DNA of 64,000 nt from Mobula hypostoma (lineage: Eukaryota), in assembly GCF_963921235.1 (NCBI RefSeq), contig NC_086097.1, forward strand, positions 159,466,001-159,530,000, written 5' to 3'. A model generated the notes under the pieces. It made no database searches. It was given only the letters and a program-made list of their open reading frames with translations, and was not told where the DNA came from. Shown one piece after another: positions 13,877 to 55,469 of the stretch; position 1 is the stretch's first letter; each line of letters begins with the position of its first letter. The position numbers and the translations under genes were made by a program.

Positions 13877-14061
13877 ACACATAAAAGTTGCTGGTGAATG
13901 CAGCAGTCCAGGCAGCATTTTTCAGTTAGTCCTGACGAAGGGTCTCGGCCTGAAACGTCGACTGCACCTCTTCCTAGAGATGCTGCCTGGCCTGCTGCGT
14001 TCACCAGCAACTTTTATGTGTGTTGCTTGAATTTCCAGCATCTGCAGAATTCCTGTTGTTT
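13877..14061 (+). mobile_element. Mini fold-back Penelope pLTR insertion
   Basis: 16-bp perfect TSD atgttgaaaaggggac (13861-13876, 14062-14077); about 43-bp inverted arm followed by pLTR and tail. Confidence 0.88.
13928..13963 (+). ncRNA. Minimal type I hammerhead ribozyme motif, intact core
   Basis: AGTC-CTGACGA-(A)GGGT ctcg GCCT-GAAAC-GTC^GACT; stem I AGTC/GACT; predicted cut after 13959. Confidence 0.8.
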
Positions 14062-15205
14062 ATGTTGAAAAGGGGACTATGTTGAAAAATTTTCCTTTGC
14101 TACATCGACAACAGCATTGGCGCTGCTTCCTGTACGCATGCTGAGCTCGTTGATTTTATTAACTTTGCCTCCAACTTTCACCCTGCCCTCAAGTTTACCT
14201 GATCCATTTCTGCCACCTCCCTCCCCTTTCTAGATCTTTCTGTCTCTATCTCTGGAGACAGCTTATCTACTGATGTCTACCATAAGCCTACTGACTCTCA
14301 CAGCTATCTGGACTATTCCTCTCCTCACCCTGTCTCTTGGAAAAATGCCATCCCCTTTTCGCAATTCCTCCGTCTCCGCCGCATCTGCTCTCAGGATGAG
14401 GCTTTTCATTCCAGGACGAAGGAGATGTCCTCCTTTTTTAAAGAAAGGGGCTTCCCTTCCTCCACCATCAAATCTGCTCTCAAACGCATCTCCCTCATTT
14501 CACGCACATCCTCTCTCACTCCTTCCTCCCGCCATCCCACTAGGAATAGGGCTCCCCTGGTCCTCACCTACCACCCCACCAGCCTCCGGGTCCAACATAT
14601 AATTCTCCGTAACTTCCGCCACCTCCAATGGGATCCCACCACTAGGTACATCTTTCCCTCCCCCCGCCGCTCACACACACAGGAATCGCTCCCTATGCGA
14701 CTCCCTTGTCAATTTGTCCCTCCATCCCTCCCCAACAATCTCCCTCCTGGCACTTATCCTTGTAAGCGGAATAAGTGTTACACATGCCCTTACACTTCCT
14801 CCCTCACTACCATTCAGGGCCCCAGACAGTCCTTCCAGGTGAGGCGACACTTCACCTGTGAGTTGGCTGGGGTGATATATTGCGTCCGGTGCTCCCGATG
14901 TGGCCTTCTATATATTGGCGAGACCCAACGCAGACTGGGAGATCATTTTGCTGAACACCTACGCTCTGTCCACCAGAGAAAGCAGGATCTCCCAGTGGCC
15001 ACACATTTTAATTCCACGTCCCATTCTCATTCTGATATGAATATCCACGGCCTCCTCTACTGTAAAGATGAAGCCAGACTCAGGTTGGAGGAACAACACC
15101 TTATATTCCGTCTGGGTAACCTCCAAACTGATGGCATGAACATTGACTTCTCAAACTTCCGCTAATCCCCCACCTCCCCCTCGTACCCCATCCGTTATTT
15201 ATTTA

Positions 15206-18021
15206 CTCTATTGGGGGTATTCTATAGGCCCCCTGGTAGCAGCAGAGATACAGAGGAGCAGATTGGGAGGCAGATTTTGGAAAGGAACAAAAGTAACAGG
15301 GTTGTTATCATGGGTGACTTTAACTTCCCTAATATTGATTGGCACCTGATTAGTTCCAAGGATTTAGATGGGGCAGAGTTTGTTAAGTGTATCCAGGACG
15401 GATTCCTGTCACAGTATGTGGACAGGCCGACCAGGAGGAATGCCATACTAGATCTAGTACTAGGTAATGAACCAGGTCAGGTCACAGATCTCTCAGTGGG
15501 TGAGCATCTGGGGGACAGTGACCACCGCTCCCTGGCCTTTAGCATTATCATGAAAAAGGATAGAATCAGAGACGACAGGAAAATTTTTAATTGGGGAAAG
15601 GCAAATTATGAGGCTATAAGGCTAGAACTTGCGGGTGTGAATTGGGATGATGTTTTTGCAGGGAAATGTACTATGGACATGTGGTCGATGTTTAGAGATC
15701 TCTTTCAGGATGTTAGGGATAAATTTGTCCCGGTGAGGAAGATGAAGACTGGTAGGGTGAAGGAACCATGGGTGACAAATGAGGTGGAAAATCTAGTCAG
15801 GAGGAAGAAGGCAGCATACATGAGGTTTAGGAAGCAAGGATCAGCTGGGTCTATTGAGGAATATAGGGAAGCAAGAAAGGAGCTTAAGAAGGGGCTGAGA
15901 AGAGCAAGAAGGGGGCATGAGAAGGCCTTGGCGAGTAGGGTAAAGGAAAACCCCAAGGCATTCTTCAATTATGTGAAGAAAAAAAGGATGACAGGAGTGA
16001 AGGTAGGACAGATTAGAGATAAAGGTGGGAAGATGTGCCTGGAGGTTGTGGAAGTGAGTGAGGTCCTCAATGAATACTTCTCTTCGGTATTCACCAATGA
16101 GAGGGAACTTGATGGTGGTGAGGACACTATGAGTGAGGTTGATATTCTGGAGCATGTTGATATTAAGGGAGAGGAGGTGTTGGAGTTGTTAAAATACATT
16201 AGGACGGGTAAGTCCCTGGGACCTGACGGAATATTCCCGAGGTTGCTCCACGAGGTGAGGGAAGAGATTGCAGAGCCTCTGGCTAGGATCTTTATGTCCT
16301 CGTTGTTCACGGGAATGGTACCGGAGGATTGGAGGGAGGCGAATGTTGTCCCCTTGTTCAAAAAAGGTAGTAGGGATAGTACGAGGGGGAGGTGGGGCAA
16401 TAGTGGAAGTTTGATTAATTATCCCTGGGTAATTATAGACCAGAGAGCCTTATGTCTGTGGTGGGAAAGCTGTTGGAAAGGATTCTTAGAGATAGGATCT
16501 ATAGGCATTTGGAGAATCATGGTCTGATCAGGGACAGTCAGCATGGCTTTGTGAAGGGCAGATTGTGTCTAACAAGCCTGATAGGCAACAGGAATTCTGC
16601 AGATGCTGGAAATTCAAGCAACACACATAAAAGTTGCTGGTGAACGCAGCAGGCCAGGCAGCATCTCTAGGAAGAGGTGCAGTCGACGTTTCAGGCCGAG
16701 ACCCTTCGTCACGAAGGGTCTCAGCCTGAAATGTCGACTGCACCTCTTCCTAGAGATGCTGCCTGGCCTGCTGCGTTCACCAGCAACTTTTATGTGTGAA
16801 GCCTGTTAGAGTTCTTTGAGGAGGTGACCAGGCATATAGATGAGGGTAGTGCAGTGGATGTGATCTATATGGATTTTAGTAAGGCATTTGACAAGGTTCC
16901 ACATGGTAGGCTTATTCAGAAAGTTAGAAGGCATGGGATCCAGGGAAGTTTGGCCAGGTGGATTTAGAATTGGCTTGCCTGCAGAAGGCAGAGGGTGGTG
17001 GTGGAGGGAGTACATTCAGATTGGAGATTGTGACTAGTGGTGTCCCACAAGGATCTGTTCTGGGACCTCTACTTTTCATGATTTTTATTAACGACCTGGA
17101 TGTGGGGGTAGAAGGGTGGGTTGGCAAGTTTGCGGAAGACACAAAGGTTGTTGGTGTTGTAGATAGTGTTGAGGATTGTCAAAGATTGCAGAGAGACATT
17201 GATAGGATGCAGGAGTGAACTGAGAAGTGGCAGATGGAGTTCAACTCGGAGAAGTGTGAGGTGGTACACTTTGGAAGGACAAACTCCAAGGCAGAGTACA
17301 AAGTAAATGGCAGGATATTTGGTAGTGTGGAGGAGCAGAGGGATCTCGGGGTACATGTCCACAGATCCATGAAAGTTGCCTCACAGGTGGATAAGGTAGT
17401 TAAGAAAGCTCATGGGGTGTTAGCTTTCATAAGTCGAGGGACAGAGTTTGAGAGTCGCGATGTAATGATGCAGCTCTATAAAACTCTGGTTTGGCCACAC
17501 TTGGAGTACTGTGTCCAATTCTGGTCACCTCACTATAGGAAGGATGTGGAAGCATTTGAAAGGGTCCAGAGGAGATTTACCCGGATGCTGCCTGGTTTAG
17601 AAAGTATGCATTATGATCAGAGATTAAGGGAGCTAGGGCTTTACTCTTTGGAGAGAAGGAGAATGAGAGGAGACATGATAGAGGTGTACAAGATAGTAAG
17701 AGGAATAGATAGAGTGGATAGCCAGTGCCTCTTCACCAGGGCACCACTGCTCAATACAAGAGGACGTGGCTTTAAGGTAAGGGGTGGGAAGTTCAAGGAG
17801 GATATTAGAGGAATATTTTTTACTCAGAGAGTGGTTGGTGCGTGAAATGCACTGCCTGAGTCAGTGGTGGAGGCAGATACACTAGTGAAGTTTAAGAGAC
17901 TACTAGACAGGTATATGGAGGAATTTAAGTTGGGGGCTTATATGGGAGGCAGGGTTTGAGGGTCGGCACAACATTGTGGGCCGAAGGGCCTGTACTGTGC
18001 TGTACTGTTCTATGTTCTATG
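15206..18021 (+). mobile_element. CR1 LINE, 5'-truncated within APE, relatively young
   Basis: 438-aa open stretch (YRPP, GDFNFP, GDSDH, GPDG), [15 protein letters not shown], (tgttcta)n tail. Confidence 0.95.
16585..16798. mobile_element. Palindromic mini Penelope pLTR insertion inside CR1
   Basis: Arms about 16622-16708 and 16711-16797 are reverse complements; TSD aagcctg(a/t)tag at 16574-16584 and 16799-16809. Confidence 0.9.
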
Positions 18022-18278
18022 TTTATATACACACATTCTTTTTCTCTCTCTTCTTTTTCTCCCTCTATCCCTCTGACTATACCCCTTGCCCATCCTTTGG
18101 TTTTTCCCCTCCTCCCCCTTTTCTTTCTCCCTAGTCCTCCTGTCCCATGATCCTCTCATATCCCTTTTGCCAATCAACTGTCTAGTTCTTGGCTCCATCC
18201 CTCCCCCTCCTGTCTTCTCCTATCATTTCAAATCTCCCCCTCCCCCTCTCAAATCCCTTACTAGCTCTTCTTTCAGTT

Positions 18279-18314
18279 AGTCCTGACGAAGGCTCTCAGC
18301 CCGAAACGTCGACT
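18279..18314 (+). ncRNA. Minimal hammerhead motif, intact core with variant stem II
   Basis: AGTC CTGACGA aggctctcagccc GAAAC GTC GACT. Confidence 0.7.
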
Positions 18315-20054
18315 GTACCTCTTCCTAGAGATGCTGCCTGGCCTGCTGCGCTCACCAGCAACTTTTATGTGTGTTGTTTGAAAAATAAATGTGCTAGGTT
18401 TTCTAAAATTGATTCCTTCTACCTTAGGCCTCAAACTTATCAATCACACCTCATAAGTCTTCCACTTAGCAAATCAGAAGCTAAGGGGTTGGTAGGGTTA
18501 AGGATTAGGGGATTATGTCAAGACTTGTGGGATAATGGGCATAAGGGAGGACATCTTTACAGAATACATAAAACTGCTGGGTTGATGGGAGAAGGGGGTA
18601 AAATGAGAAGTGAAGGAATTATATTGATTTGACTTAGAATTAGGCATACTATGCTTCATTATTCCTTAGATCTTGTTGGAAAACATTACTCTGGGGTGTG
18701 TAGGTTTTGTCATCATTATGAAATGTTTGAAGACATAATATTATAGAGTGAAGCATATAAGGTGGATAGAAATCAAAATCAGGCTTCATTACTATCTTTG
18801 GGGTTGTTAGTTTACATTTAAAAACTTTAAGTTATGGAAGTGACTTTAATTTAATTCACAATATTGTATTTAATTATTTACAATTTTTAGGGCTGTTTGG
18901 GGTAATGTAGTTGTCATTTGATGAAAAACTAGTTGGGGTTTTGTTTCCCAGTTCTCAACACCACACTCCAGTCCAGTTGGTGGCGATAATGCACCTTTAA
19001 GTTGGACTGCCAGCTGCCATTAAAAGTCAGTGGAAGAAGACTTCCCTCACACCCAAGAGGATACATACATGGATAATATTTTACATCTTAAAGTACTTGT
19101 AGCAGAATGCCCCATTAAAGCAAATTAGTATCTACTCACCAGTTGATCATCTGTGACATTTTAAGTAGGACATTTTAAGGTACAATAAAACTCTGATATC
19201 CAGTCCACTTAGGGCTTTCGTAGAAATTGACTAGCAGAATCTCCAGAATATTGGATGTCACTCTCTTAAGGGAACAGCTGTGCTTAGGGAAGAATTAAAT
19301 TGCCTGTGCAAGATGTTGTATAATAATAGGCATACAATTTGGAATAGGTACCACTGGATCATTAACTTCCTTACCAGGAGACCACAGTCTGTGTGGATTG
19401 GAGGTAACACCCTCTCACTGACAATCAACACTGGCACACCTCAATGATATGTGGCTAGGCACAGCTCAAATGCCACCTATAAATTTACCAATGACACAAC
19501 TATTGTATGGAAGAATTTCAGATAGTGATGAGGAGGTGTACAGGAGTGAGATAGATCAGCTGGTTGAGTGGTGTCAAAGCAACAACATTGCACTCAACAT
19601 CAGTAACAGCAAGGAATTGATTGTGGACTTCAAGAAGGAGAACAAAAATGAAGGAAAATACTCCAGTCTTTATTGAGGTATCAGAAGTGGAAAGGGTGAG
19701 CAATTTCAAGTCCATGGGTGTTAATACATTCTGATGAAATATCCTGGGCCAAACATACTGATGTAATTACAAAGATGCATAACAGCATCTATTTTCATTG
19801 AGAGTTTGAGAGTAATTTGTACGTCACCAAAGACACTCGCAGATTTCCACAGAGGTGCTGTGATATTCAAACTGATTGCATCACCGTCTGATATGGAGGA
19901 GCCACTGCACAAGGTCGGAAGAAGCTGCAGAAAGTTGTGAAATAAGCCAGCTCCATCATGGACACTAGGCTCCCCAGCTTCCACATCATCAATGCTGCAC
20001 AACTTCATGTGTGTAACCCATTATAGCATGCCATGGGCACTAGTCTTCCCAGCA

Positions 20055-21338
20055 TGCATCACATTGAGCACGGGGCCCCCCAGGGCTGTGTGCTCAGTCC
20101 CTTACTGTTCACTCTGCTGACCTACGACTGTGCAGCAATACACAGCTCGAATCACATCATCAAGTTTGCCGATGGCACAACCTTGGAGGGTCTCATCAGC
20201 AAGAATGATGAGTCAGCATACAGAGAGGAGGTACAGAGCCAACAACCTGTCCCTGAATGTGGACAAAACAAAAGAGATCGTTGTTGACTTCAAGAGAGCA
20301 CGGAGCGACCACTCTCTGCTGAACATTAATGGCTCCTCCATTGAAATCGTTAAGAGAACCAAATTTCTTGGTGTTCACCTGGCGGAGAATCTCACCTGGT
20401 CCCTCAACACCAGCTCCATAGCCAGGAAAGCCCAGCAGCATCTCTACTTCCTGCGAAGGCTGAGAAAAGTCCATCTCCCACCCCTCATCCTCACCACATT
20501 CTACAGAGGATGTATCAAGAGTACCCTGAGTAGCTGCATCACTGCTTGGTTCGGGAATTGCATCGTCTCAAATCACTACACCCTGCAGCGGATAATGAGG
20601 TCAGCTGAGAAGATCATCGGGGTCTCTCTTCCCGCTATTGCAGACATTTACACCACACGCTACACCCACAAAGCTAACAGTATTGTGAAGGACCCCATGC
20701 ATCCCTCATACAAACTCTTCTCCCTCCTGCCATCTGGCAGAAGGTACCGAAGCATTCGGGCTCTCACGACCTGACTGTGCAACAGTTTCTTCCCCCAAGC
20801 CATCAGACTCCTCAATACTCAGAGTCTAGATAGACATCTACATCATTTATTATTATATTGTAATTTGTCCTCTACTGTGCCTAATATCTTGTTTATTAAT
20901 TATTGTACTGCCCAGCACTTTCCTGTGCAGGTCTTAAACACAAAATAATCTGCAGATGCTGGGATCAAAGCAACACTTACAGTATGCCGGAGGAACTCGG
21001 CAGGCCGGGCAGCATCAGTGGAAACGATGAATCGACATTTTGGGCCGGAACCTGACAATGTGTTCCGGCCCAAAATGTCGACTCATCGTTTCCACTGATG
21101 CTGCCCGGCCTGCTGAGTTCCTCTGGCATACTGTAAGTGTTCCGGTGCAGGTCTGTAGTCTAGTGCAGTTTTTATGTTGTTTTACGTAGTCTAGTGTAGC
21201 CTTGTGCTGTCTCACATAGTCTAGTGTAGTTTTGTGTTGTTTCATGTAGTACCAGGGTCCTGGAGGAACGTTTCACTTTTGCTGTGTACTGTACCAGAAG
21301 CTTATGATCGAAATGACAATAAACTTGACTTGACTTGA
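20055..21338 (+). mobile_element. Younger Rex-Babar LINE 3' part
   Basis: [37 protein letters not shown]; (cttga)n tail after atgacaataaa. Confidence 0.88.
20935..21140. mobile_element. Palindromic mini Penelope-related element (second subfamily)
   Basis: About 80-bp inverted arms; extra tail on the left arm; TSD tcc(t/g)gtgcaggtct at 20921-20934 and 21141-21154. Confidence 0.85.
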
Positions 21339-21434
21339 CCTTCAAACAGCAATGCCCCTAAAAGGCAGTATCCATCATTAAGGACATCCATCACCCCGGA
21401 GATGCGCTCTTCTCATTGTTACCATCAAAAAGGA

Positions 21435-22177
21435 TTCAAAGAACATTTATTATCAAAGATTTTAGAATACAACTCAGAGATTAGTCCTCCCACAGGCAGC
21501 CATGAAACAAAGGAACACCGTGGAAACCTTTGAAGAGAACATCAAACACCCAACGTATGAAAAAAGAACAAATTGTGTAAATAGCAGAATGCTAGCAGAC
21601 AACACATAGAATATCAAATATTAAACCTGGAGTACAGTAGTATTCAGTTTAGACCATAAGACCATAAGACAAAGGAGCAGAAGTCAGCCATTCGGCCCAT
21701 CGAGTCTGCGCCACCATTTTATCATGAGCTGATCCATTCTCTCATTTAGTCCCACTCCCCCGCCTTCTCACTGTAACCTTTGATGCCCTGGCTCCTCAGA
21801 TACTCAGTTTAGTTCAGTTTAGTGTCTTACTGCAGGCCACAAGGAAGCATTCTTCGCAGAAGTACCCCAGATTGCATTGATTATCCCAATTAAACTGTTT
21901 AAAAAAAATCAAATAAAGAGTAACCAGAATCCAGGAATACTTGCAACATGAACCCCAAACTTCCCCAAAATGAGTCCACAGCCTCTCTGATCAATCCTTG
22001 CAACGTGGATCCCAAGACTCATACACTTTCCTCGGATAGCAGCTAGTGAGAGGGAGAGGAAGACTAGTGAAGCACAGGCAGATGGACCCGAATACCCACC
22101 CGTCCTTTGCTCTTGTTCTCATTGACAACAATCTTGCTCGTAGTCTCAATTGTAGAAAATCAATGGAGCCAATCATG
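21435..22177 (-). mobile_element. Unclassified non-coding retroposon-like insert, containing a short CR1 3' end at 21653-21800
   Basis: Splits the Rex C-terminus; LINE-type tail attcaaagaacatttattatcaaag; the CR1 piece is flanked by ta(t/c)tcagtttag. Confidence 0.55.
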
Positions 22178-22612
22178 GAGGTACTGCAGCTTGAAGACAC
22201 ACACTCAACATTTCATGAACAGCTTCTTCCCCTCTGGCATCAGACTTCTGAATGGACAATGTACCCATGAACACTAGCTCAATGTTTTTTCCCCACTCTA
22301 TTTGCACTTCTTAGTGTATTTGATTTAATTTACTTCTTATTGTAATACATAGTTTTATTATTATGTATTGCAATGTAGTGGTGCTGCAAAATGACAAATT
22401 TCATGATATATGCTAATAATATTAAACCTGATTCTGATATCTATTCATTAAGAAAGGTAAAATGTGTAGGAACTCGGTAGGAATATAATTCTGCACAAAA
22501 TCCATGAAACTACCATCAATTGTCAAATGGAGATAGATCAAGTGACAATAGATTATTGCAACTTGGAAATGTTTTATACTTTATTTTTAAAAGTTGGGTC
22601 CCGACAAAGGGG

Positions 22613-22714
22613 ATTAGTCCTGACGAAGGGTCTCGGCCTGAAACGTGGACTGTACCTCTTCCTAGAGATGCTGCCTGGCCTGCTGCGTTCACCAGCAACT
22701 TTGACGTGTGTTGT
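22613..22714 (+). mobile_element. Short Penelope pLTR fragment with hammerhead (GTG at the cleavage triplet)
   Basis: ttagtcctgacgaagggtctcggcctgaaacgtggact... Confidence 0.85.
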
Positions 22715-23424
22715 TTATTGAATGTGACTTGTTTTTTGTTTAAAGTAGGCTCCTTGCTATTTTGACTATTTTGCACATGAATAGAAGCCAGAATGTAGTC
22801 CAAACACACAACCATTTTCAGTGGCATTCTCTTAACCATTTCTTGTTTGTAGTTTGATAATGATAGTTCTCTTGTCATTTCAATTTCAAACTAACATCAC
22901 AAGCCTGAAAAGTAAGTATTTTGAAGAAATTTTTTTTTGAAAATTGGTCTTTGATTGTTCCTTTAAATTGATAAATGTTATTGACTATGAATAATCTTGT
23001 GACTGATATCCATGTTGAAATCAGTTTCAATTTGAAGACTTATCAATGAGTTATAATTTTCAGTCAATATTCCTTGATAGCACTGTCTAAGCAGTTTACA
23101 TTCTTTGATGATGATTAAGGTGAAATTAATTGGGGGGTAATCAGTTCAATTGGAATTGTCATGGATTTTATGAACATATCTAGGTGATTTTCCACATTAT
23201 CAGGTCGATATCAGCATTGTAATTTTACTGAATCAGTGTGGCTGGAGGCCTTAAGATTATTGAATGGTTGTAGAAGCCAGTCTCATTCAGTAATATCCTC
23301 AGGGAAGGAAATCCATCACTTTTGTCTGAGTTATATGCAACAGAGCCTGAACAGAGTGCTCAATGATCAACTGCCCTTTGGAATGACCCAGAAATTTCTC
23401 TGGCTCAGGGAACAGTGAAAGATG

Positions 23425-23662
23425 GCAGCCCATTCTGTAAGAGACTCTGTACATCCTCCCTGTGCGATGTATGGGAATCTCTGGGTCCTCCTGTTTCCTT
23501 CCACAGTCCCAAGACATACTGGGCAGGTTAACTGATCATTGTAAATTGGCCCATGATTAGGTTGGGTTAATTGGATTTGTCAGGGGTTGCTGGGGTGGTG
23601 TAGTCTGACAGTTTGGAAGGACCAATTCTGTACTGCATTACTAAATTAAAAAAATACATAAA
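23425..23662 (+). mobile_element. V-SINE-type SINE, degenerate
   Basis: Core ctcctgtttccttccacagtcccaagacatac...ggttaactgatcattgtaaattg; A-rich tail. Confidence 0.65.
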
Positions 23663-23785
23663 ATGCATGTTGGCCAAACCAGCAGCATCCACATAACATG
23701 AACACTACTTAAACAACAATGCAATTATTCCATCTATTCTATTCCACAAAATATTAAAATAACCAGTGAATTTCTTTCCTTTTAC

Positions 23786-23889: not shown

Positions 23890-23909
23890 CTGTATATCAA
23901 GCAGTAGTA

Positions 23910-24437
23910 AATCAAGGCAACTGGACTTGCTGTGGTGTCTAGAAGACATTTCAACACTCATCCACAAGGCTTCTTCAACTCTGATCCATGGTGGGTAGCT
24001 TTCTGACTTGTAGAATCTATGAGTTGTTTAAAGGTATAGCAATCATGTGAGGGTCGTTAAAAGTCTTAGAGGTAATGAGGATGTCATTAGTCTTATCTTT
24101 GCATGAATGGAGATGTGAGCTGTTGTGGAGACACTGGGGTATAGGTGTTAGGACTACATTGTAAGTAGTTGATAGGTGGTGTCATACCCCACCTCCTCTG
24201 TTCTGGGTTATCAGCTACTTACAGTGCAGTTCTAACGTCTCTACACTGGCACTTCCACAAAAGTTCACACCTCCATTCATGCAAAGGTAAGACTAATGAC
24301 CCTCTCATTACCTTTATGACCCTTAACAATGCTCAGATGATTGCAATACCTTTAAACAACTACAGAGTTTATAAACCAGAAAACTAGGCACCATGGATCA
24401 GAATTGAAGAAGCCTCTTGGATGAGTGGTGATATGAC
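23910..24437. mobile_element. Old fold-back Penelope of a different family
   Basis: Diverged inverted arms about 23945-24173 and 24207-24437; minus strand reads NRGGGV*HHLSTTYNVVL (PLE C-terminus); decayed tgaagaagcc..ggatgag..gaaatgtc motif. Confidence 0.75.
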
Positions 24438-24913
24438 ACCAGGATCCACCATCAGAGGCCTGGTTGATCCCTACAGCCCCTTCTGCTGCACAGGATGACC
24501 ATAACAATGAGGATACATTTTACATATCCTTTCCATTGGTGTTGTTATGCTCTCAAACTGGGAATTCCACCTCTACCTCTATTAACACTTCTGCATTTCT
24601 TCTTGCAACACTTCAATTTGTACTACTATACTTGCACCTTTCTACTGTTTTGCACTTATGACTGTATTGTAACTATGTATACTGTTTCCCCTGTGAGCTA
24701 CATACAAATAATTTCATGATTCCTTGGTGTGCATACATAACAAAAAACTAATCAGAATTTGCAGGTAAAAAACAGGAAAACATTGGTATGTACTTCATGA
24801 AGCTTGGAAACTCCATTTACATAAATGAGACTAGTCTTGATGTGACAGGCATGACGTGGCAAGTTGAGTCATAAACTGTGCTCTACCCATTCAGCACAAA
24901 ATAATCCTGAATA

Positions 24914-28575: not shown

Positions 28576-28700
28576 AAGGGTCTCGGCCCGAAACGTCGAC
28601 TGTACCTCTTCCTATAGATGCTGCCTGGCCTGCTGCGTTCACCAGTATTTTTTGTGTGTGTTGCTCGAATTTCCAGCATCTGCAGATTTCCTCGTGTTTG
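28576..28700 (+). mobile_element. Penelope pLTR 3' fragment with tail; hammerhead truncated
   Basis: aagggtctcggcccgaaacgtcgact...ccagcatctgcagatttcctcgtgtttg. Confidence 0.85.
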
Positions 28701-29470: not shown

Positions 29471-29499
29471 GCAAGGAGTTGACGCATTCAATAAATGAT

Positions 29500-33270: not shown

Positions 33271-33345
33271 GTGTTTTCTTTGGAGCTCTCCCTGCTGGTA
33301 AGGTGGGGCCATGGCAATTCAAGGCAGATGAACACGATAACTTAC

Positions 33346-43746: not shown

Positions 43747-45733
43747 AGATGTCTTTTTAATTTTATCCCATATCCTTAATTACCACTTAGAACCTAACCC
43801 TTTGATTGCTCTTTTTAGCATTTTGGGTGAAGTTGACATGCGTTTGAGTCTGACTAAAAGGCAAACATTGTCTTTTGACTCTCTCTTGGCCAGACGTTTA
43901 GTTCTTCTTAGGTAACCCACCCACTCATGCTCAATGGCTTAGAGACATTATGTCTTGCTTAGACCTTGAAAGGATTCATTATTCTCTTCTTAATTCAGAC
44001 ATAAAGTTCCATAAGGCGTGGGGACCTTTTCTTGATTATTTTCATAACCCCTCTTTAGATTAAAGGTTTATCTTCCTTTTTCTTTCAGTGATTTAGTCCC
44101 TTACATCCAGCTTTCTTTTCTGGTTAACTTTTATGTTTTATTTTAATGATGTGAAATATGTTATAGTTTAGGTAGTAGGCAATACACTTTTTTATATTCA
44201 CAGCTCTGTGGTGACAAAAGTTCTGATGAACTTTTCTTTATATTGTAATAGTTGGCTTGGAGTGCGTAGTGGGAGCGTGGGGTGGAAATTAACTTTATAT
44301 GATTTTATTTTGGGTGCTTTTTCTTTACTGTTATGAATTGTACATCAGACACGTTGGTTTTGCACTGTATAAATCTCCTTTTTGTTGGTGGCTTTTTTTT
44401 GTTCCAATGTAGAAATTCATTAAAAAAATTAATAAAAAAGTAAGGGGGCATGGGATACAAGGAGTCCTTGCTTTGTGGATCCAGAATTGGGTTGTCCATA
44501 GAAGGCAAAGGGTGGTTGTAGATGGTTCATGTTCTGCATGTAGGTCAGTGACCAGTGGTGTTCCACAGGGACCTGTTCTGGGACCCCTCCTCTTTATGAG
44601 TTTTATAGATGACCTGGATGAAGAAGTAGAAGAGTGGGTTAGTAAGTTTGCCAATGACGCAAAGGTTGACGGTGTTATGGAAAGTCTGGAGGGTTGTCAG
44701 AGGTTACAGCGGAACACTGATAGGACACAGAACTGGGCTGAGAAGTGGCAGCTGGAGTTCAACCCGGATAAGTGTGAAGTGGTTAATTTTGGTAGGTCAA
44801 ATTTGAAGACAGAATATAGTATTAATGGTAAGACTCTTGGAAATGTGGAGGGTCAGAGAGATCCTGGGACATTCAAAGCTACTGAGCAGTTTTGCTGTAT
44901 TGCTAACATTCATTAACCATGGGATTGATTTCAAGAGCTCTGAAGTCATGTTACAGCTGTAGGAGACCTTGGTCAGATCTACTTGAAGTACTGTGTTCAG
45001 TTTTGGTCACCTCACTACAGGAAGGATGTGGATACTATAAAGTGCAGAGGAGATATACAAGGATGTTGGCTGGATTGGAGAGTGTGCTTATGAGAATAGG
45101 TTGAGTGAACTTGGCCTTTTCTCCTTGGAGCAATGGAGGATGAGAGGTGACCTGATAGAGCGGTATACGATGATGAGAGGCGTTGATCATGTGGATAGAG
45201 GGCTGAAAGGGCTAACATAAGGGGGCATAGTTTTAAGGTTCTTGGAAGTAGTTTCAGATGGGATGCCAGGGGTAAGTTTTTCATACAGAGAGGCAGGTGC
45301 GTGAAATGCACTGCCAGCGACGGTGGTAACGATCGTACAATAGAGTATTTTAAGAGACTCTTAGAAAGGCGCATGGAGCTTAGAAAAATAGAAGACTATG
45401 TAGTCGGTAAATCCTAGGCAATTGCTAGAATAGGTTACATGGTTGGCACAACATTGTGGGCTGAAGGGCTTATAATATGCTGTAGATTTCTATGTTCTAT
45501 GTTCTATGACACTGGAAAAGGATGATAGCAGAAGAGCAGTGGCTGGACTTTCTAGGGGCAATTCAGAAAATTCATGAAAGACACACACCAAGGATGAAGA
45601 AGTATTCTAAAGGGAGGATAAGGCAACTGTGGCTGACAAGGGAAGTAAAAAATGGTATTAAATCAAGAGAGTGCGCATAATATAGCAAAAACTAGTGGGA
45701 AATTGAAGGATTGGGAAGCTTTTAAAAAACAAC

Positions 45734-47045
45734 TGTAACACTCAGGGCTATTGGCTCGTGTTTGTCTCGGAGAAACCCCGTCCACCTGCCAAACCGTGTC
45801 TCACGTTTGCGTAGTTGCTGTGTAATGCACCCTGGTACAAACTCACACATAGAATATCAGACAGCACACAATGTATGATTTACAGATTGCACTTTATAAA
45901 TCTTACTGGAACTATGTAATTAATAGAGATACAATATAAAAGGAAAGTAAAAGGCACCAAACTTATCAGAATTCAACCATTTTGTGCACAACCGTTGGAG
46001 CTCAATTAACGGGGTCTTCTTTCCACCATTCGATCTCCTCTGACCTCCTCGACCTCCTCGACCCGCCACCTGGGACCAACCATGGTGGTCGACCAGAGCG
46101 CGCCCAGCACGTCCTTCCTCTTTGGTTCTCCTCCCTAAAGGCCCACACGCTGACTCAGGTTCCCATACATACAGATAGAATAACATAGCTTCAATTGGTT
46201 AGTTTTTTTTAGATTAGGTTATGAAGACACTCAGTCCTCGTTTATTGTCATTTAGAAATGCATGCATTAAGAAATGATACAATGTTCTTCCAGAGTGATA
46301 TCACAAAAAAAACAGGGCGAACCAAAGACTAACACTGACAAGACCACATAATTATAGCATATAGTTACAACAGTGCAAAGCAATACTGTAATTTGATAAA
46401 GAGAAGACCATTGGAACGGTAAAAAAAAGTCTCAAAGTTCTGATCAACTCCCGATAGTCCCGTTAGCAGGTGGCAAAAGGGAGAAACTCTCCCTACCATA
46501 AACCTCCAGGCACTGACAACTGCTGATGCATTGGAAGCACCTGACCACAGCCGACTCTGAGTCCGTCCGAAAAATTCGAGCCTCCAACCAGCCCTCCGAC
46601 ACCGAGCACCGAGCGCCATCCTCTGCCAAGCGCTTTCACCCACCCCGGCCGCCGAGCAACAAGCAAAGCTGAGGACTTGGGGCCTTCTCCTCTGGAGATT
46701 CTGGATCACAGTAGCAGCGGCAGTGAAAAAGGCATTTCAGAAGTTTCTCCAGATGTTCCTCTGTGCTCTCACGTCTGTCTTCATCAAATCAGGTTTGTGC
46801 ACGGCACCCTACTTGACAGATAACAGATATCATTCCGGAGTGACCGCTGCACGCCGCATCGTGCTGCCATCTTCTCATAGTTCCTCCGTTATCTATGACT
46901 ATAACCAAAACATTTCAGCTACAGAGAACATAACCTCATAGTTAACATTACAAAGAAGCCATTTCATTACAACACTTCAGAGAGGCCATTTTATAATTAG
47001 CAGTTAACAGTTAACATTACAGTTAATATTACTGGGAACCCTACG
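45734..47045 (-). mobile_element. Probable solo LTR (about 640 bp net), split by a retroposon
   Basis: Non-coding insert in CR1 bounded by tgtaac... and ...ccctacg; imperfect 4-bp TSD caac/cac. Confidence 0.55.
46205..46877 (-). mobile_element. ~670-bp non-autonomous retroposon, copy 3 (full length)
   Basis: Homologous to 1287-1965; TSD tagtt at 46200-46204 and 46878-46882. Confidence 0.87.
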
Positions 47046-48736
47046 CACAAAAGGCAACTAAAAAGCCATAAGGAGGGAAAATATGAAATATGAAGGTAAG
47101 ATAGCCAATAAAATAAGATACCAAAAGTTTTTTAGAGGTATGAAAAATAAAAGAAAATCGAGAGTGGATAATGAACCACTGGAAATTGACACCAGAGAGG
47201 TAGTAATGGGAGACAAAGAAATTGCAGATGAATATTTAATAAGTATTTTGTGTCAGCCTTTATGGTGAAAGACACTATTAACATGCTATAGATTCGAGTG
47301 TGTTAAGGTGCAGAATGAGTGTAGTTTCTATTACTAAGGAGAAGATGCCTGAGAAGCTGAAAAGTCTGAAGTTAGGCAAGTTATATGGACCAGATTGACT
47401 GCAACCACGGTTCTAAAAAAGTAGGTGAAGGGATTGTGGAGGCATTAGTAATGATCTTTCATGAATCACTAGAGTCAAGAATCGAGAGGATTGAAAAATT
47501 GCAAATGTCACTCCCCTCTTTGAGAAGGGAGGGAGGCAGAAGCAATGAAATTATAGGCCAATTAGACTTACAGCAGTGGTTGGGAAGATGTTGGAATTCA
47601 ATGATAAAGATGAGGTTTCAGGGTACTTGGAGACACATGATACAATAGGCCAAAGTCAGCATGGTTTCCTTCAAGGGAAATCTTGTATGACAAATCTGTT
47701 GAAATTCTTTGAGGACGTAACAGGCAGGAAAGACAAAGGAGAATCAGTGGACATTGTCTACTTGGATTTTCAGAATGCCTTTGACAAGTTACCACACACA
47801 AGGCTGCTTAACAATTTAAGGGCCCACAGTATTACTGGAAAGATACTAGCATGGATAGAAGATTGGCTGACTGGCAGCAGGCAAAAAGTGGTAAAAAAGG
47901 AAGACTATTCTGGTTGGCTGCTGGTGACTAGTGGTATTCTGCAGCAGTCAGTATTGGGACTGCTTATTTTCACATTATATGTCAATGATTTTGATGATGG
48001 ATTAATGGCTTTGTGGCCAATTTAGCAGACAATATATAAATAGAAGAAGGGGTAGGTAATGTTGAGGATCAGGGAGTCTTCAGAAGCACTTGTACAGATT
48101 GGGAGAATGAACAAAGAAATGGCAGAATATAGTGTAGGGAAGTGTATGGTCATGCACTTTGCAAGAAGGAATAAAGGTGTAAACAATTTTCTGCACAGCG
48201 AGAAACTTCAAAATTCAAAGTTGCAAAAAGGACTTGAAAGTCTTCATGCAGGATTCCCTAAGGTTAATATGCACATTGAGTTAGTGGTAACAAAGGCAAG
48301 TGTACTGTTAGCAGTCATTTTGAGAAGTCTAGAATATAAAAGCAAGGATATAATGCTGAGGCTTTAAGAGGTATTGGTCTGACCACACTTCAAAGGTTCA
48401 AAACTTCATTTTATTATCAATGTATGCACGCAGAATGCAACTCTGAAATTTTTCTTCTCCAGATAGCCACAGAATGCAGAAAACTATATAAGTAGTTGAA
48501 AAATAGGCACCAACCTACACCCACCATGAAAAAACAGAAACTCAGAAACCCCAAACATCCCCAACCCCTCCCTCATACAAAATCTAACAGATCACCCAAA
48601 CCCCCATCCTACCAATCTGCAACAAGAAAGAATGGGAGCGAACACAAGAAAAAAACATAGAACTAAAATAGGCCAATATGAACTCCAGTTTAATCCATAC
48701 ATCTCAGAACTTTGGTAACATCTCTGAGAGCATCGA

Positions 48737-48928
48737 GACCCAGCGGCTCCTCCAAAGGCAGCAACTCGAGCCAGCAGCCCCTCCGAGGGCAGGAACTCGA
48801 GCCAGCGGCTCCTCCGAGGGCAGGAACTCGAGCCAGCGGCTCCTCCGAGAGCAGGAACTCAAGCCAGCGGCTCCTCCGAGGGCAGGAACTTGAGCCAGCG
48901 GCTCCTCCGAGGACAGTAACTTCAGCCA
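48737..48928. repeat. 31-bp GC-rich minisatellite, about 6 units, within an unclassified insert (about 48390-49000)
   Basis: gagccagcggctcctccgagggcaggaactc at 48768, 48799, 48830, 48861 and 48892. Confidence 0.92.
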
Positions 48929-50084
48929 GTGGCCTTCCAAGGTCAGCGACTACAGAAGGCTGCCTGCAAAGTCAAAACCTTCATGCTGACAATAGAGCTG
49001 TTCTTTCTGAAGGGGAATTGAAAACCAGCACTTCGCACAAGGGATAATGGAAATCCAAAAGTTTTGTCCACCAAGCACAGTGGTATTCACACTTTCAGTG
49101 CTGAGACTGAGATTTGTCTTTTATTAGTCTATCAAAAGCTAAGGTTGTCATCAAAGATTACGTGGCATGGAAAACCTAATGAGTTCCTACTGGTCTTATT
49201 GCCTAAGATTAATAAAAGACAAGGTGATATGGCAAAAGGGAATATTTTAATGATTAAACAAAACAGGAACTAGCATCTGCAGTCAGAGTGGTGGAATCAT
49301 TTAATGAGAAAATGGGCATTCCAAGAAAGGGATACTGTAACCTTTCTAAATGGAGAGTGGCCTAATCACTACTAATCCTCTTGTCATCTCTTATGAACTG
49401 CTATAGATTAATGTTAGTTTTTCAAAGCTAAAAAATCTCATCATTGCAGAAAGAAGCAGTAAATAGACATTTATGATATAGGGCAAAAGCGACATTTATG
49501 CCCAGTTTCCAGTGACTTGGACAAGATGCAGGGGTTAGGGCTTATTCTGTCCTCTCAGCCAGCGAGGAGCAAATAATGAATGAAATTCTAAAGAGGAAAT
49601 GACAGCGATAATTATCAGCAAACCTCAGTGCTTCTTTCTTTTTTGAAACTTTGTTTGGTCATCTACGTATATCTGATAAAGATAATGAGATTTTTAGCTT
49701 TATTTCTATGCTGCCCACTGGCACTAAGATAAGATGAAAAACTCTTCACATCCACAGAAGGAATTATCCAACTTGCCACATCGCAACTACTGGAATGTGA
49801 AACTAGTTTTTCCGGATTAACCTCAATTCATAATTCACCCATCAAAAAGCAATGAATGAAAGTAATAGGGCAAAAATCACTTCACAAAGGTGGAAAAATT
49901 GTAAAATAAATGAAAAATAGAAGAGGAAAGTAGGTAGAAGTGCCGTCATTAGACCAATTTGGGTACAAGTTAGTCCATGGGAGCTTTCTACCTAACATGG
50001 TCACAAAAATCAAAAGTTTTTTTTTCCTGCTCTAGTTTCCATACAAACTCATTTATATATAATTGGAAGGAAAATTTTCTACAG

Positions 50085-51507
50085 GCCGGTGTTGTGGACC
50101 CTCTAAATATATTCCTTTCTATCATTCACATGCTTTCAACCTCAACAACTTCCAATTCCCTGGACATGACTGCCTCATTTTCACATGGATGACCAGTCCC
50201 TATACACTTCAATCCCCTATCAAGAAGGCCTTAAAACTCTCCATTTCTTTCTCAACAAAAGACCCAAGTAGTTCCTCTCTATCACCATCCTCCTCTGAAA
50301 GAACTAATCTTCTCCCACAACAATTTCTCCTTTTGCTCCTCCCACTTTCTCCAATCTCAAAGGGGAGCATGGGTACCCACATAGGCCCCAGCTATGCCTG
50401 CCTTTTTGTTAGCTGAATAGAACAATACATGTTCTGAGCATCGCCTGGTAATGCTCCCCAACTCTTCCTGTGCTACATTGACAACTGTAGTGATGCTGCT
50501 TCATACACCCATGATGGCTCGTCAGTTTTATCTTTTATATTGCCTCCAACTTCCACCCTGCCCTTAAATTCACTTGGTTCATTTCTGACACTTCTTTCTC
50601 TTTTCTCCATCTCTCAGTCTCGATCACAAGAGACAACCTGTCTACCGACATCTTTAATAAACCTGCCAATTTCCATGGCTATCTTGATTATACCTCTTCC
50701 CAATCTGTCTCCTGTAAAAATGCTATTCTCTTTTCACATTTTCTTTGATTCTGCCACATCTGTTCCCAGGTTGAGGATTTCCTTTCCAAGACATCAGAGA
50801 TGTCATGGTTCTTCAAAGAAAGGGGTTTCCCTTCCTTCAGCATTGATACTGTCCTCATCTGCACCTCCCCCATTCCCTAGATATTCATGTTAGCCCCGTC
50901 TTCCTGCCACCTTAAGAGGGATCTTTTCTCACCCACCATCCTGTGAGCATCAGCATCTAACACATCATCCTTTGCAACTTCCGCCATCTCCAACAGGACC
51001 CTAACACCAAGCACATCTTTACCTCCCCCCCACTCTCTTTTTTTCTGTAGAGATCAGTCCCTCCCTGATTCCCTTGTCCATTTGTCCCTCTCCACTAATC
51101 TCCCTCCTCACACATATCCCTGCAACTGACAAACGTGTAACACCTGCCCATTCACCTCCTCCCTCACCTCCATTCAGGGCCCTAAACAGCCCTTTGGGTG
51201 AGGTAACACTTCACCTGTGAATCTATCGGATATTGTCCATTGTATCCAGATGCGGCCTTCGCTATATTGGTGGAACATGTCATAAGTTGGGGGAGCACTT
51301 TGTCAAGCACCTTCACTCCATCCGCCAGAAGAGGAATTTCCTGGTGGCCAACCATTTTAATTCTTATCCCCATTCACGTTCCAACATGGCGATCTATAGC
51401 CTCCTCTTTTGCCATGATGAAGTCACTTTCAGGGCGGAGGAGCAACACCTTATATTCCTTCTAGGTAGCCTCCAACCTGTTGGCATGAATATCAATATCT
51501 CCTTCTG
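50085..51507 (+). mobile_element. Old Penelope-like element (RT and GIY-YIG), degenerate
   Basis: MDDQSLYTSIP, GSMGTHIGPSYACLFV, YIDN, CGLRYIGGT, EEQHLIF. Confidence 0.88.
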
Positions 51508-51509
51508 GT

Positions 51510-51709
51510 CAGATGTGTGAAATTTGTTGCTATGTGCAGCTGTGGAGACAAGGTCATTGGGTGTATTTAAGGCAGAGATTGATAGGTTCTTAATTGGACA
51601 TGGCGTCAAAGGTTACGGGGAAGAGGCCAGTAACTGGGGTTGAGGAGGAGAAAGCAGTCCCAATGGGCCAGATGGCCTAATTCTGCTCCTATGTCTTATG
51701 GTCTTATGA
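51510..51709 (+). mobile_element. CR1 3' end
   Basis: tcttatggtcttatg tail. Confidence 0.75.
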
Positions 51710-51829
51710 TCACAGAACAAAAGCGGGAAAGAAACATTTTTTTTTCAGACAGAGGAAAGCAACCAACTATGACTTATTTGTTGAGAAATGGGTTATAGTA
51801 TAAAATAAATTATTACAAAGGAGAGCTAC

Positions 51830-51854
51830 CTTTCAAACTACTTCCAAATATAAC
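51830..51854 (-). CDS. Possible 25-nt micro-exon, phase 0-1 (VIFGSSLK)
   Basis: Acceptor ctgcttatag, donor AAG|gtagct; bridges the phases of its neighbours. Confidence 0.35.
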
Positions 51855-53438
51855 CTATAAGCAGTAATTAGTTTTTGAAAATACTAGAATAGATACATAC
51901 ATAAGCACTGCTATCTGAGAAAGTAGCAATTTATCAGCTCACAGTGGGAGGCCACAAGAAATCAGTTTTTTGAAAACTGACGTGATCATGATAAACACTG
52001 GTCAAATGTGCTGACAATAAGGCTATAGTAATTGGACCCCACTGAAATCCGCGGAATGAGATCAAGAAAGGTTCCAGACATGTTATTTGCCATTTAGCAT
52101 GTCAAAAACGGTCAGAACCATATTTATTCTGTCAATCAATACTTGAATATTTGTGTATTCAGAGAGTCAGCTTTATGCAACTGTAAAAAGGATGTTTTGG
52201 GTTTTGCCCTTTGATGCTTTTAGAATTTCAATGAGAACAACCATGTGCTAACAAAGATGTTGAAACAGTCAGAGGTGGTCTTTTCAGTTTAGTGGTGTTT
52301 CAATTCTAAAAGTAATTCTGTGGAACTATTGGTTAACACAAAATATTTAAATAAACTATAGAATTGTAACGACTCTAATTATACTTAATTATCTGTTCTC
52401 TTTGTATTTAAAGGATTTTAAAAATTCAATGTAATTTCAGTTAAGAGATACTTTCAACATGCTTGCTTGTGCTAAATCATCATCAGGTTTATTACTTCTG
52501 CCATACAGTATGTTGTGCAATTTGCTGTTATCCTGCAGGAGCACAGTGAAAAGATATAAAGCATACTAGAAGTTACCGTAAATAATTAAGTAGCGCAGAA
52601 GAGGATTGTTCATGGATCGTTCAGAAATCTGATGGTGGAGGAAAAAATCTGTTCCTAGAATGTTGAATGTGGGTTTTCAGGCTCCTTCCTGCATGTGAAG
52701 AGGTCATGTCCCAGATGGTGAGGGTTCTTGATAGTGGCTGCTTCCTTCTTGAGGCACTGCATTTTAATGATGTCCTTGATGGTGGGAAGGTATCTAGTGA
52801 TGGAGATACCTGAGTCTAAACCCTCTGCATCCTTTGATGAGATTCACAGATCCTGCACAGTGAAGTCTCTGTTCAAAGTGATGATGCAAGCAATCAGAAT
52901 GACCTTCACCATCGTCATCATCAGGTACCGTGCCCAGTTTGAGCTTTGACTGCCATGGCCCACACTCTCTTGTTTCAGTTCAAGTGGATCAATTCTTTGG
53001 TATTCCTTTCCAGTTCTCTGGCTGCTGTCTCCATCATCATTTGTTTTTGCCTTCCTTTTGCTTTCTTCCCTTCAACCTTTCCCATAATTACTATGCATTC
53101 TAACTCCTCTTTCCTAATCACACGTCCAATGAAGTTACGTTGCCTTTTCATGATCTCATACATTATCTCTCTTTTTGTACTTGCTCTGTTCATGCCATCC
53201 TCGTTAGATATTCATTTCATCCATGATATTCTTTGCAAAAACGACATCTCTGCTGCTTCAATTCGTTTCCTCGTGTTACTAGATATTGTCCAACATTCTG
53301 ATCCATATAACATAACTGGACAAACATAACATTTCAGTACTCTGAGGCAGGTTGTCATGCCTAGTTTAGTATTGGTCAACACACATCAAAGTTGCTGGTG
53401 AACGCAGCAGGCCAAGCAGCATCTATAGGAAGAGGCGC

Positions 53439-53474
53439 AGTCGACATTTCAGGCCGAGACCCTTCGTCAGGACT
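53439..53474 (-). ncRNA. Minimal hammerhead motif, GAAAT variant
   Basis: Minus strand AGTC CTGACGA agggtctcggcct GAAAT GTC GACT. Confidence 0.6.
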
Positions 53475-55433
53475 AACTGAAGGAAGAGTGAGTAAGGGAT
53501 TTGAAAGCTGGAGGGGGAGGGGGAGATGCAAAATGATAGGAGAAGACAGGAGGGGGAGGGATAGAGCCGAGAGCTGGACAGGTGATAGGCAAAAGGGGAG
53601 ACGAGAGGATCATGGGACAGGAGGTCCGGGAAGAAAGATGGGGGGGGGTGACCCAGAGGATGGGCAAGAGGTATATTCAGAGGGACAGAGGGAGAAAAAG
53701 GAGAGTGAGAGAAAGAATGTGTGCATAAAAATGAGTAACAGATGGGGTACGAGGGGGAGGTGGGGCCTAGCGGAAGTTAGAGAAGTCAATGTTCATGCCA
53801 TCAGGTTGGAGGCTACCCAGACAGAATATAAGGTGTTGTTCCTCCAACCTGAGTGTGGCTTCATCTTTACAGTAGAGGAGGCCGTGGATAGAAATGTCAG
53901 AATGGGAATGGGATGTGGAATTAAAATGTGTGGCCACTGGGAGATCCTGCTTTCTCTGGCGGACAGAGCGTAGATGTTCAGCAAAGCGGTCTCCCAGTCT
54001 GCGTCGGGTCTCACCAATATATAAAAGGCCACATCGGGAGCACCGGACGCAGTATATCACCCTAGTCGACTCACAGGTGAAGTGATGCCTCACCTGGAAG
54101 GACTGTTTGGGGCCCTGAATGGTGGTAAGGGAGGAAGTGTAAGGGCATGTGTAGCACTTGTTCCGCTTACACGGATAAGTGCCAGGAGGGAGATCAGTGG
54201 GGAGGGATGGGGGGGACGAATGGACAAGGGAGTTGTGTAGGGAGCGATCCCTGCGGAATGCAGAGAGAGGGGGGGAGGGAAAGATGTACTTAGTGGTGGG
54301 ATCCCGTTGGAGGTGGCGGAAGTTACGGAGAATAATATGTTGGACCCGGAGGCTGGTGGGGTGGTAGGTGAGGACCAGGGGAACCCTATTCCTAGTGGGG
54401 TGGTGGGAGGATGGAGTGAGAGCAGATGTACGTGAAATGGGGGAGATGCATTTAAGAGCGGAGTTGATAGTGGAGGAAGGGAAGCCCCTTTCTTTAAAAA
54501 ATGAAGACATCTCCCTCGTCCTAGAATGAAAAGCCTCATCCTGAGAGCAGATGCGGCGGAGAAGGAGGAATTGCGAGAAGGGGATGGCGTTTTTGCAAGA
54601 GACAGGGTGAGAAGAGGAATAGTCCAGATAGCTGTGAGAGTCAGTAGGCTTATAGGCTCCCTACACAACTCCCTTGTCCATTCGTCCCCCCCATCCCTCC
54701 CCACTGATCTCCCTCCTGGCACTTATCCGTGTAAGCGGAACAAGTGCTACACATGCCCTTACACTTCCTCCCTTACCACCATTCAGGGCCCCAAACAGTC
54801 CTTCCAGGTGAGGCATCACTTCACCTGTGAGTCGACTAGGGTGATATACTGCGTCCGGTGCTCCCGATGTGGCCTTTTATATATTGGTGAGACCCGACGC
54901 AGACTGGGAGACCGCTTTGCTGAACATCTACGCTCTGTCCGCCAGAGAAAGCAGGATCTCCCAGTGGCCACACATTTTAATTCCACATCCCATTCCCATT
55001 CTGACATTTCTATCCACGGCCTCCTCTACTGTAAAGATGAAGCCACACTCAGGTTGGAGGAACAACACCTTATATTCCGTCTAGGTAGCCTCCAACCTGA
55101 TGGCATGAACATTGACTTCTCTAACTTCCGCTAGGCCCCACCTCCCCCTCGTACCCCATCTGTTACTCATTTTTATGCACACATTCTTTCTCTCACTCTC
55201 CTTTTTCTCCCTCTGTCCCTCTGAATATACCTCTTGCCCATCCTCTGGGTCACCCCCCCCCCCAACTTGTCTTTCTTCCCGGACCTCCTGTCCCATGATC
55301 CTCTCGTATCCCCTTTTGCCTATCACCTGTCCAGCTCTCGGCTCTATCCCTCCCCCTCCTGTCTTCTCCTATCATTTTGCATCTCCCCCTCCCCCTCCAG
55401 CTTTCAAATCCCTTACTCACTCTTCCTTCAGTT

Positions 55434-55469
55434 AGTCCTGACGAAGGGTCTCGGCCTGAAACGTCGACT
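55434..55469 (+). ncRNA. Minimal type I hammerhead motif, intact core
   Basis: AGTC CTGACGA agggtctcggcct GAAAC GTC^GACT; predicted cut after 55465. Confidence 0.8.

Follow-up and report, generated by a model that had tools for sequence, protein, structure and literature searches.

The window analysed here is a stretch of 64,000 nucleotides (nt) from Mobula hypostoma (contig NC_086097.1, positions 159,466,001 to 159,530,000, forward strand), and it contains several insertions of a Penelope-like element (PLE) whose 3' ends share a 36-nt motif. Judged by its sequence, this motif is a minimal type I hammerhead ribozyme (min-HHR) in the 3' repeat, or pseudo-long terminal repeat (pLTR), of the PLE. 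The motif class has been known since 2014, when the min-HHRs of PLEs were defined by their loss of loop III (Cervera and De la Pena, PMC4209133). Hammerhead positions are numbered as in PMC4209133. The full copies in the window are as follows:

13928..13963, plus strand: unmutated min-HHR with AGUC/GACU, CUGACGA, the extra A, GGGU/GCCU and GAA-ACGU-C; predicted cut after 13959
55434..55469, plus strand: unmutated min-HHR of the plus arm of an inverted insertion; 304 nt from the stop of the open reading frame (ORF) to C3; predicted cut after 55465
53439..53474, minus strand: min-HHR of the minus arm of the same insertion, with C15.2>U (AUGU); tail-less end at 53377
18279..18314, plus strand: min-HHR with C11.1 and a damaged stem II, in which two stem II/loop II changes shift the usual register
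12227..12262, minus strand: min-HHR with C3>U, C15.2>U and a change at 1.5
22616..22651, plus strand: min-HHR with C17>G at the cut site

A Hamming scan of the window with a 37-nt query taken from the 13928 copy recovered the motif at all six sites that a preliminary description of this DNA had named: 13928 and 55434 (plus strand) without mismatch, 22616 (plus) and 53439 (minus) with one mismatch each, and 18279 (plus) and 12227 (minus) with three each. The description had given a single uniform 36-nt motif, which is present at six of six sites and matched exactly at 13928 and 55434 only. The truncated halves that it placed at 16681-16740 and 28576 were confirmed by scan and alignment as half motifs at 16681 (minus), 16711 (plus) and 28576 (plus), all without the 5' core. 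Only two of the six full copies are unmutated; the other four are damaged at core or stem positions. The pattern CTGAYGA-gap-GAAAC matched four times in the window against 0.67 expected, a count of at least four being reached in 0 of 100 shuffles, and a full min-HHR descriptor including the stems matched three times against none over 200 dinucleotide shuffles. An Rfam search of the window at gathering score returned 0 matches.

Stem I of the motif consists of AGUC/GACU (4 bp) plus one G-U pair. The core C3-A9 reads CUGACGA and is followed by an extra A, after which stem II pairs GGGU with GCCY (4 bp) around a CUCG loop; on the 3' side of stem II stand G12, A13 and A14, then A15.1, C15.2, G16.2 and U16.1, and finally C17. 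The ACGU in this last part is loopless and its own complement, and the monomer cannot close stem III. That stem III is ACGU only and self-complementary had been noted before and is borne out in sequence, with ACGU in six of nine arms and AUGU, the product of a CpG transition, in three of nine. The core CUGANGA...GAAA...UH, in type I order, is intact in 13928, 55434, 53439 and 18279 and broken in 12227 (C3U) and 22616 (C17G). For the 13928 copy, the register with the extra A bulged has a predicted probability of 0.96; the alternative register, with the extra A paired to U11.1, was rejected at 0.02. Pair 10.1-11.1 is G-U in seven of nine arms and G-C in two of nine as well as in a sister subfamily. 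The flanks on either side of the motif are rich in pyrimidines and offer no extension of stem I, so that no sign of a loop-loop contact was seen. With neither loop III nor a helix I extension, and with the absence of an Rfam match at gathering score, the motif departs from the canonical tertiary-stabilised type I hammerhead, in which a loop closes helix III and a helix I of 6 bp makes a loop 1-loop 2 contact.

The assignment to a PLE pLTR, made in the preliminary description from the letters, holds up on the RT (reverse transcriptase)/GIY-YIG ORF, the PLE tail, the inverted arms and the covariation of the stems. The stop of a GIY-YIG ORF lies ~300 nt upstream of the motif at 55434, at 53439 and, once an intervening long interspersed element (LINE) is discounted, at 18279; the 12227 motif also lies downstream of an endonuclease end. 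Searches by tblastn with full-length relatives carrying RT and endonuclease covered 14044-15174 and 54654-53773, and homologues of the window ORF carry PF00078 and PF01541. The best protein match was from zebra shark (63% identity, E 1e-114), and 101 of 1151 candidate proteins, these being the longer ones, passed E 1e-10. Other homologues were mostly unnamed RT-bearing proteins at roughly 30-50%, together with two bamboo shark proteins at 62-64% over part of the query. These matches make a cartilaginous fish the likely host. The window frames contain the linker CKRNKCYTC, and C161, C166 and C169 were invariant or nearly so among 24 proteins. A CX2-5CxxC linker is described as a mark of the Neptune and Nematis clades (PMC8557442). 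The linker, and relatives that bear the Neptune motif of Acropora, indicate that the element is likely an endonuclease-positive PLE of the Neptune clade. In the zebra shark protein (P0001), the C-terminal residues match the translation of the window hammerhead region in one frame; the zebra shark element likely bears the same motif, its gene model being a read-through of the repeat.

The insertions themselves are arranged as follows:

12130..12725, minus strand: 5'-truncated PLE end with the endonuclease C-terminus, 3' untranslated region (UTR), min-HHR 12227-12262 and tail
13876..14062, plus strand: short PLE insertion with an inverted tail-less stub (~13876-13918), hammerhead and 3' end with tail; 16-bp flanking direct repeat, likely a target-site duplication
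14085..15204, plus strand: 5'-truncated PLE body with the C-terminal part of the RT (decayed YIDD region), a CX4CxxC linker and the GIY-YIG endonuclease; open frame 14203-15165
15205..18021, plus strand: LINE insertion of 2.8 kb splitting the PLE 3' UTR, with an endonuclease domain by Pfam; presumably CR1-like by resemblance
16586..16798, both strands: two PLE 3' ends in inverted orientation, located inside the LINE and each truncated in the 5' core (16681 minus, 16711 plus); only the minus arm has a tail
18022..18376, plus strand: remainder of the 3' UTR belonging to the 14085 element; contains min-HHR 18279-18314 and has a tail-less end
20945..21141, both strands: decayed inverted pair of the sister subfamily (~74% identical), both arms cut inside stem II; its loop II differs, position 11.1 is C, one arm carries a tail, and a 10-bp repeat flanks the pair
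22614..22713, plus strand: solo PLE 3' end, tail-less, its min-HHR with C17>G
28576..28698, plus strand: solo PLE 3' end beginning at the extra A, without the 5' core; C11.1; tail; 13-bp flanking direct repeat
53377..55566, both strands: single inverted PLE insertion with minus arm 54660-53377 (RT thumb and endonuclease) and plus arm 54656-55566 (endonuclease); 13-bp flanking direct repeat
55532..55566, plus strand: optional PLE tail (~34 nt), predicted to form a stem-loop with the preceding sequence

The nine arms of the main family distribute over seven insertions, and all copies are 5'-truncated. The arms of the 53377..55566 insertion are 98.5% identical over 876 nt. The 3' ends fall at two points, 66 or ~100 nt past the predicted cut and ~34 nt apart, and a tail is present on exactly one arm in four of four inverted pairs (13876, 16586, 53377 and the sister family at 20945). 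Five insertions are flanked by direct repeats (16, 13, 13, 10 and 7 bp); no target-site duplication longer than 7 nt turned up at the 12130, 22614 or 14085 insertion. These hallmarks (5' truncation, inverted arms, a tail of ~34 nt) match the published PLE pattern, in which inverted arms occur with a 30-40 bp tail at one end (PMC8557442, including the legend of Fig. 2) and which has been ascribed to reverse transcription starting at either of two internal sites (PMC11167929).

No insertion in the window contained two motifs on the same strand, and no 5' pLTR was found in it. The 13928 copy was considered as the 5' pLTR of the 14085 element and rejected, having its own 16-bp flanking repeat and inverted stub. 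A tandem array, suggested by the 4.35/4.34-kb spacing of 13928, 18279 and 22616, was rejected as well: the intervening sequence is unrelated, and self-BLAST of the window found no tandem units. The window copies do not form natural pairs with one another; they are either separate insertions or opposite-strand arms of one insertion. Within 14085-18376, the LINE lies inside the PLE and a later inverted PLE insertion lies inside the LINE; consequently, the PLE family was active both before and after the LINE insertion.

Conservation of the motif was assessed in the best 80 of 545 metagenome stretches encoding a homologue, 63 of which had at least 200 nt downstream of the match. A search for the core only, with no stem requirement and on the sense strand up to 600 nt downstream, found the motif at 31 of 63 loci, many of them related copies that do not count as independent events; shuffles gave a mean of 0.07 and a maximum of 1. 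The search itself demanded the core letters. Among 23 distinct motifs, the extra base was A in all 23, in agreement with the extra A after CUGACGA reported earlier for the window. Pairs 10.1-11.1 (always G-C) and 10.3-11.3 were present in 23 of 23, and pairs 10.2-10.4 in 22-23 of 23. Stem I pairs, of several pair types, were found at 2.1-1.1 and 2.2-1.2 in 21 of 23 each and at 2.3-1.3 in 20. Positions 15.2-16.2 were self-complementary in 21 of 23 (CG 18, UA 2, UG 1), and N7 was free (A 10, C 10, G 2, U 1). An alignment of 16 motifs had 96% of cells paired and 49 double-sided changes, compared with 66% and 16 in shuffles (0 of 500 reached the observed values) and 25-40% paired in slid controls; its rows are 2 from the window and 14 hand-picked from 37 matches of a stem-requiring scan, and the count leans towards structure. 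The conservation and covariation of stems I and II on which the preliminary description had staked its reading were thus found in the relatives. A motif scan of viral contigs gave 0 matches.

One relative, L027, contains two same-strand motifs 3,152 nt apart (L027:269 and L027:3421) around a 936-codon frame, a layout that offers a putative partner in cis. Long open frames with a min-HHR just upstream were also seen in L027, L030:323 and L055:338. The first ATG of L030 sits within the core CUGAUGA, recalling the overlap of hammerhead and start codon in the Poseidon element PAc of Anolis.

Variation of the motif across the genome was examined in run X1, the contigs of which contain 96% of the query words, over the region 55330-55600. 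The X1 figures are depth-weighted and limited by reference bias and contig weighting, and not all differences were counted. A total of 101,647 contig pieces aligned, which is not a copy number. There were 40 variant rows at 3% or more; the 10 within the motif were all transitions at five CpG sites, and the flanks held several non-CpG variants at ~18-39%. The two highest loose-end counts shown, 582 before 55434 and 590 behind 55470, coincide with the ends of stem I, and therefore other subfamilies share the motif as an island and differ around it. CpG decay at catalytic positions was 5.9% for G8>A, 7.9% at C15.2, 9.2% for G16.2>A and 7.0% for C17>U, near the 9.1 and 11.1% of the loop II CpG, suggesting that selection on inserted copies is slight. 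C7>U stood at 15.4%, above the other CpG changes in the motif, as expected for a tolerated change carried by the source element. Rare X1 contigs of low depth looped back from 55468-55472 to 55434-55435, repeating the motif on itself, and others, also of low depth, from 55524-55566 to 55438-55466 as partial tandems. Same-strand motif pairs ~35-100 nt apart therefore occur elsewhere in the X1 genome.

The motif shares most of its features with published systems. The marks given in PMC4209133 are the extra base, G10.1-C11.1, a palindromic stem III and a proposed dimer folding, and min-HHRs are reported there in Xena, Poseidon and Neptune elements of fishes. The window motif resembles them in its type I order, CUGANGA with an extra base, a stem II opened by G10.1, GAAA-CGU-C without loop III and a helix I of 4-5 bp, as well as in its place in the 3' repeat of 5'-truncated copies, its opposite-strand pairs and the proposed dimer. 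The points that the preliminary description had put forward as its own inference (the dimer and the extra A) fit the motif and were all already contained in PMC4209133. The stems and core of the Acropora digitifera Neptune motif (Fig. S3 of that paper) are identical to those of relatives L007-L075. The stem II of 4 bp is short for the published group and equal to that of Acropora, and the family sequence differs; no cartilaginous fish is among the species examined in Fig. S3 and Table S1. We rejected U11.1 as a novel variant, as G-U at 10.1-11.1 stands in published rows; the majority G10.1-U11.1 of the window is shared with the cichlid, Latimeria(1), Xenopus(1), Lottia, Ixodes(2), Schistosoma(1) and Clonorchis(1) rows of PMC4209133.

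Short-stem-III PLE hammerheads have been found to cleave as dimers (Lunse, Weinberg and Breaker, RNA Biol 14:1499, as summarised in the review PMC6765202), and the dimer model is restated in PMC6765202 and PMC6155905. Compared through that review, the hammerheads of Lunse et al. and the window motif are alike in their palindromic, extremely short stem III, type I order and PLE association; dimer cleavage is theirs and is proposed here. The PAc Poseidon element of Anolis carolinensis (PMC11167929) is likewise similar: its hammerhead precedes the far 3' end by ~85-100 nt, and its two end points define an optional tail of 30-40 nt that is predicted to lie in a stem-loop. It differs in belonging to the Poseidon clade, without the cysteine linker that the window element has; in a start codon overlapping the hammerhead, where the window reads AAG; and in an AC-rich start region, whereas the window ends are GU-rich on the sense strand. 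Protein-assisted cleavage was demonstrated for PAc and is proposed for the window motif. Retrozymes are reported in one chondrichthyan genome (bioRxiv 10.64898/2026.07.22.740005), and these non-LTR retrozymes also carry type I hammerheads from PLE pLTRs; theirs are tandem head-to-tail non-coding units, whereas the window holds single or inverted ends of an ORF-bearing element. In the literature searched, we found no printed sequence of a shark or ray PLE min-HHR; Lunse et al. or the supplements of the 2026 preprint may hold one.

Folding was modelled with ViennaRNA, which has no tertiary, Mg2+ or protein terms. The double hammerhead was predicted at −11.5 kcal/mol compared with −22.0 for two monomers, and at about −7 kcal/mol for the AUGU copies; two monomers were also the more stable state in each of the 21 evaluable relatives. 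The predicted monomer buries the core, with G5-G8 paired to C15.2-C17, and a mispaired rod dimer reached −30.3 kcal/mol. The double hammerhead expected from two copies in the preliminary description thus matches the published model and is not the most stable predicted fold. Such modelled energies argue against spontaneous pairing of the scattered copies. They do not exclude cleavage, because the model omits tertiary contacts, Mg2+ and protein. The monomer rod was also considered as a conserved switch and rejected, since N7 varies and the predicted fold leaves the core unpaired in 8 of 23 relatives.

Cleavage of a monomer through some fold that needs no intermolecular stem III is hardly to be expected. 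Nothing in the window speaks for it, and the Anolis study (PMC11167929) is not known to have separated monomer from dimer. ACGU cannot form a closed hairpin, the core is hidden in the predicted monomer fold, and the palindrome is kept in the relatives with a compensatory CG/UA change. In Schistosoma, dimers and trimers of the min-HHR cleave weakly and the monomer does not (PMC4209133).

The account that we consider probable is that intact tandem source elements yield transcripts in which dimers cleave, slowly or with help from the element's protein, and that the window copies are passengers. Where a transcript spans pLTR-ORF-pLTR, two motifs would join: the AGUC, CUGACGA, extra A, stem II and GAAAC of one (its 5' half) would associate with the GU, C17 and GACU of the other (its 3' half), held together by two exchanged stems I and a common ACGU helix of 4 bp. 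Two active sites would result and would trim the long precursor after GUC. The start of reverse transcription would lie 66 or ~100 nt beyond the cut site, and for this reason most new 5'-truncated insertions would hold one motif or a half. Selection would retain the motif only in transposing lineages, and the scattered copies of the window are likely inert leftovers. A weak active dimer, as predicted, agrees with the weak or protein-assisted cleavage that has been published.

Several observations weigh against slow or assisted dimer cleavage. Besides the unfavourable energies, the buried core and the rod dimer, the Pfam GIY-YIG scores of 20.3 and 21.2 bits lie below the cut-off of 22.6, and the 14203 frame gave no match; the fourth stem I pair is present in only 9 of 23 relatives; and the choice of rows favours structure in the 16-motif count. 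C11.1 is found in 23 of 23 relatives, compared with U11.1 in seven of nine window arms, and U11.1 makes up ~79% of depth in X1 and in X9, a run only guessed to be RNA. From the literature, the Poseidon motif of Anolis needs the PLE protein for cleavage, its core mutants were without effect on in vitro insertion and no RNA-seq reads begin or end at the cut site (PMC11167929); Naiad PLEs thrive without canonical hammerheads (PMC8557442).

Much of this would also fit a hammerhead-derived structure kept for a non-catalytic role, such as protein binding, packaging or positioning of the start of reverse transcription, or one barely cleaving in vivo, the dimer reaction being an in vitro curiosity. 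We regard this explanation as unlikely, although it draws on the unfavourable dimer predicted both for the window motif and for its relatives, on the normal insertion of Anolis hammerhead mutants and the missing cleaved ends, and on the spread of U11.1 within the window family. PMC8557442 calls the function unclear and suggests that the motif could be a mere parasite of PLEs. Weighing on the other side, all catalytic positions (C3, U4, G5, A6, G8, A9, G12, A13, A14) and the self-complementary 15.2-16.2 pair are kept from invertebrate relatives to the window family while N7 is free, in a search that demanded core letters. The excess of C7>U over G8>A, with the other CpGs decaying evenly, fits propagation of the tolerated change alone, and G10.1-U11.1 is known from published families too.

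A further alternative is activity of the dispersed copies, single and half alike: within host transcripts they would pair either across kilobases in cis or with PLE RNA in trans, and would cut host RNAs. Three plus-strand copies do lie ~4.3 kb apart (13928, 18279 and 22616), the substrate side GAAACGUC-GACU is intact in the halves at 16681 (minus) and 28576 (plus) and in the stem-II-damaged 18279, and the family is very abundant by its X1 contig pieces. Four of the six full copies are damaged, however, CpG decay at catalytic sites is about neutral and the pairing is predicted to be unfavourable, and we judge such activity very improbable. The same low credence applies to a more specific form, in which the copies would be genome-wide cut sites: PLE RNA and PLE protein would cleave host transcripts bearing GAAACGUC-GACU in trans, and the monomer rod would be an off-state until the protein is made. 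The possible trans targets would be very many, because the target is defined only by a 4-bp palindrome and a stem I of 4-5 bp.

Other repeats were observed alongside the main family. At 23947-24435, a decayed PLE end unrelated to the main family forms another inverted pair with remains of its own min-HHR; its cores are at 23978-23945 (minus arm) and near 24404-24440 (plus arm), with C3>U in both arms. In stems and loop it is similar to the Takifugu, cichlid and snake rows of Fig. S3 in PMC4209133, and the pair is likely a Xena/Poseidon-type relic. An older, frameshifted PLE remnant at 50179-51505, ~70% identical to the main family, covers more of the RT, and its 3' UTR and hammerhead are missing. 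A 330-nt imperfect palindrome resembling a miniature inverted-repeat transposable element lies at 13047-13374, with an inverted partial copy nearby at 18366-18455; no hammerhead core was found in the palindrome. Among the metagenome stretches, L034:2030 and L048:1014 (both minus strand) contained hammerheads with a longer palindromic stem III (8 and 6 nt) belonging to other repeat families.

The window thus adds one further family to the motif class described in 2014. Were the dispersed copies cut in trans, a transposon relic would act as a host RNA-processing signal; nothing in the analysis points to such cutting. The only practical value of the family lies in the material that it offers for testing the in vivo role of PLE hammerheads: the genome contains natural forms with C or U at 11.1 and at 7, as well as partial tandems and halves in abundance.

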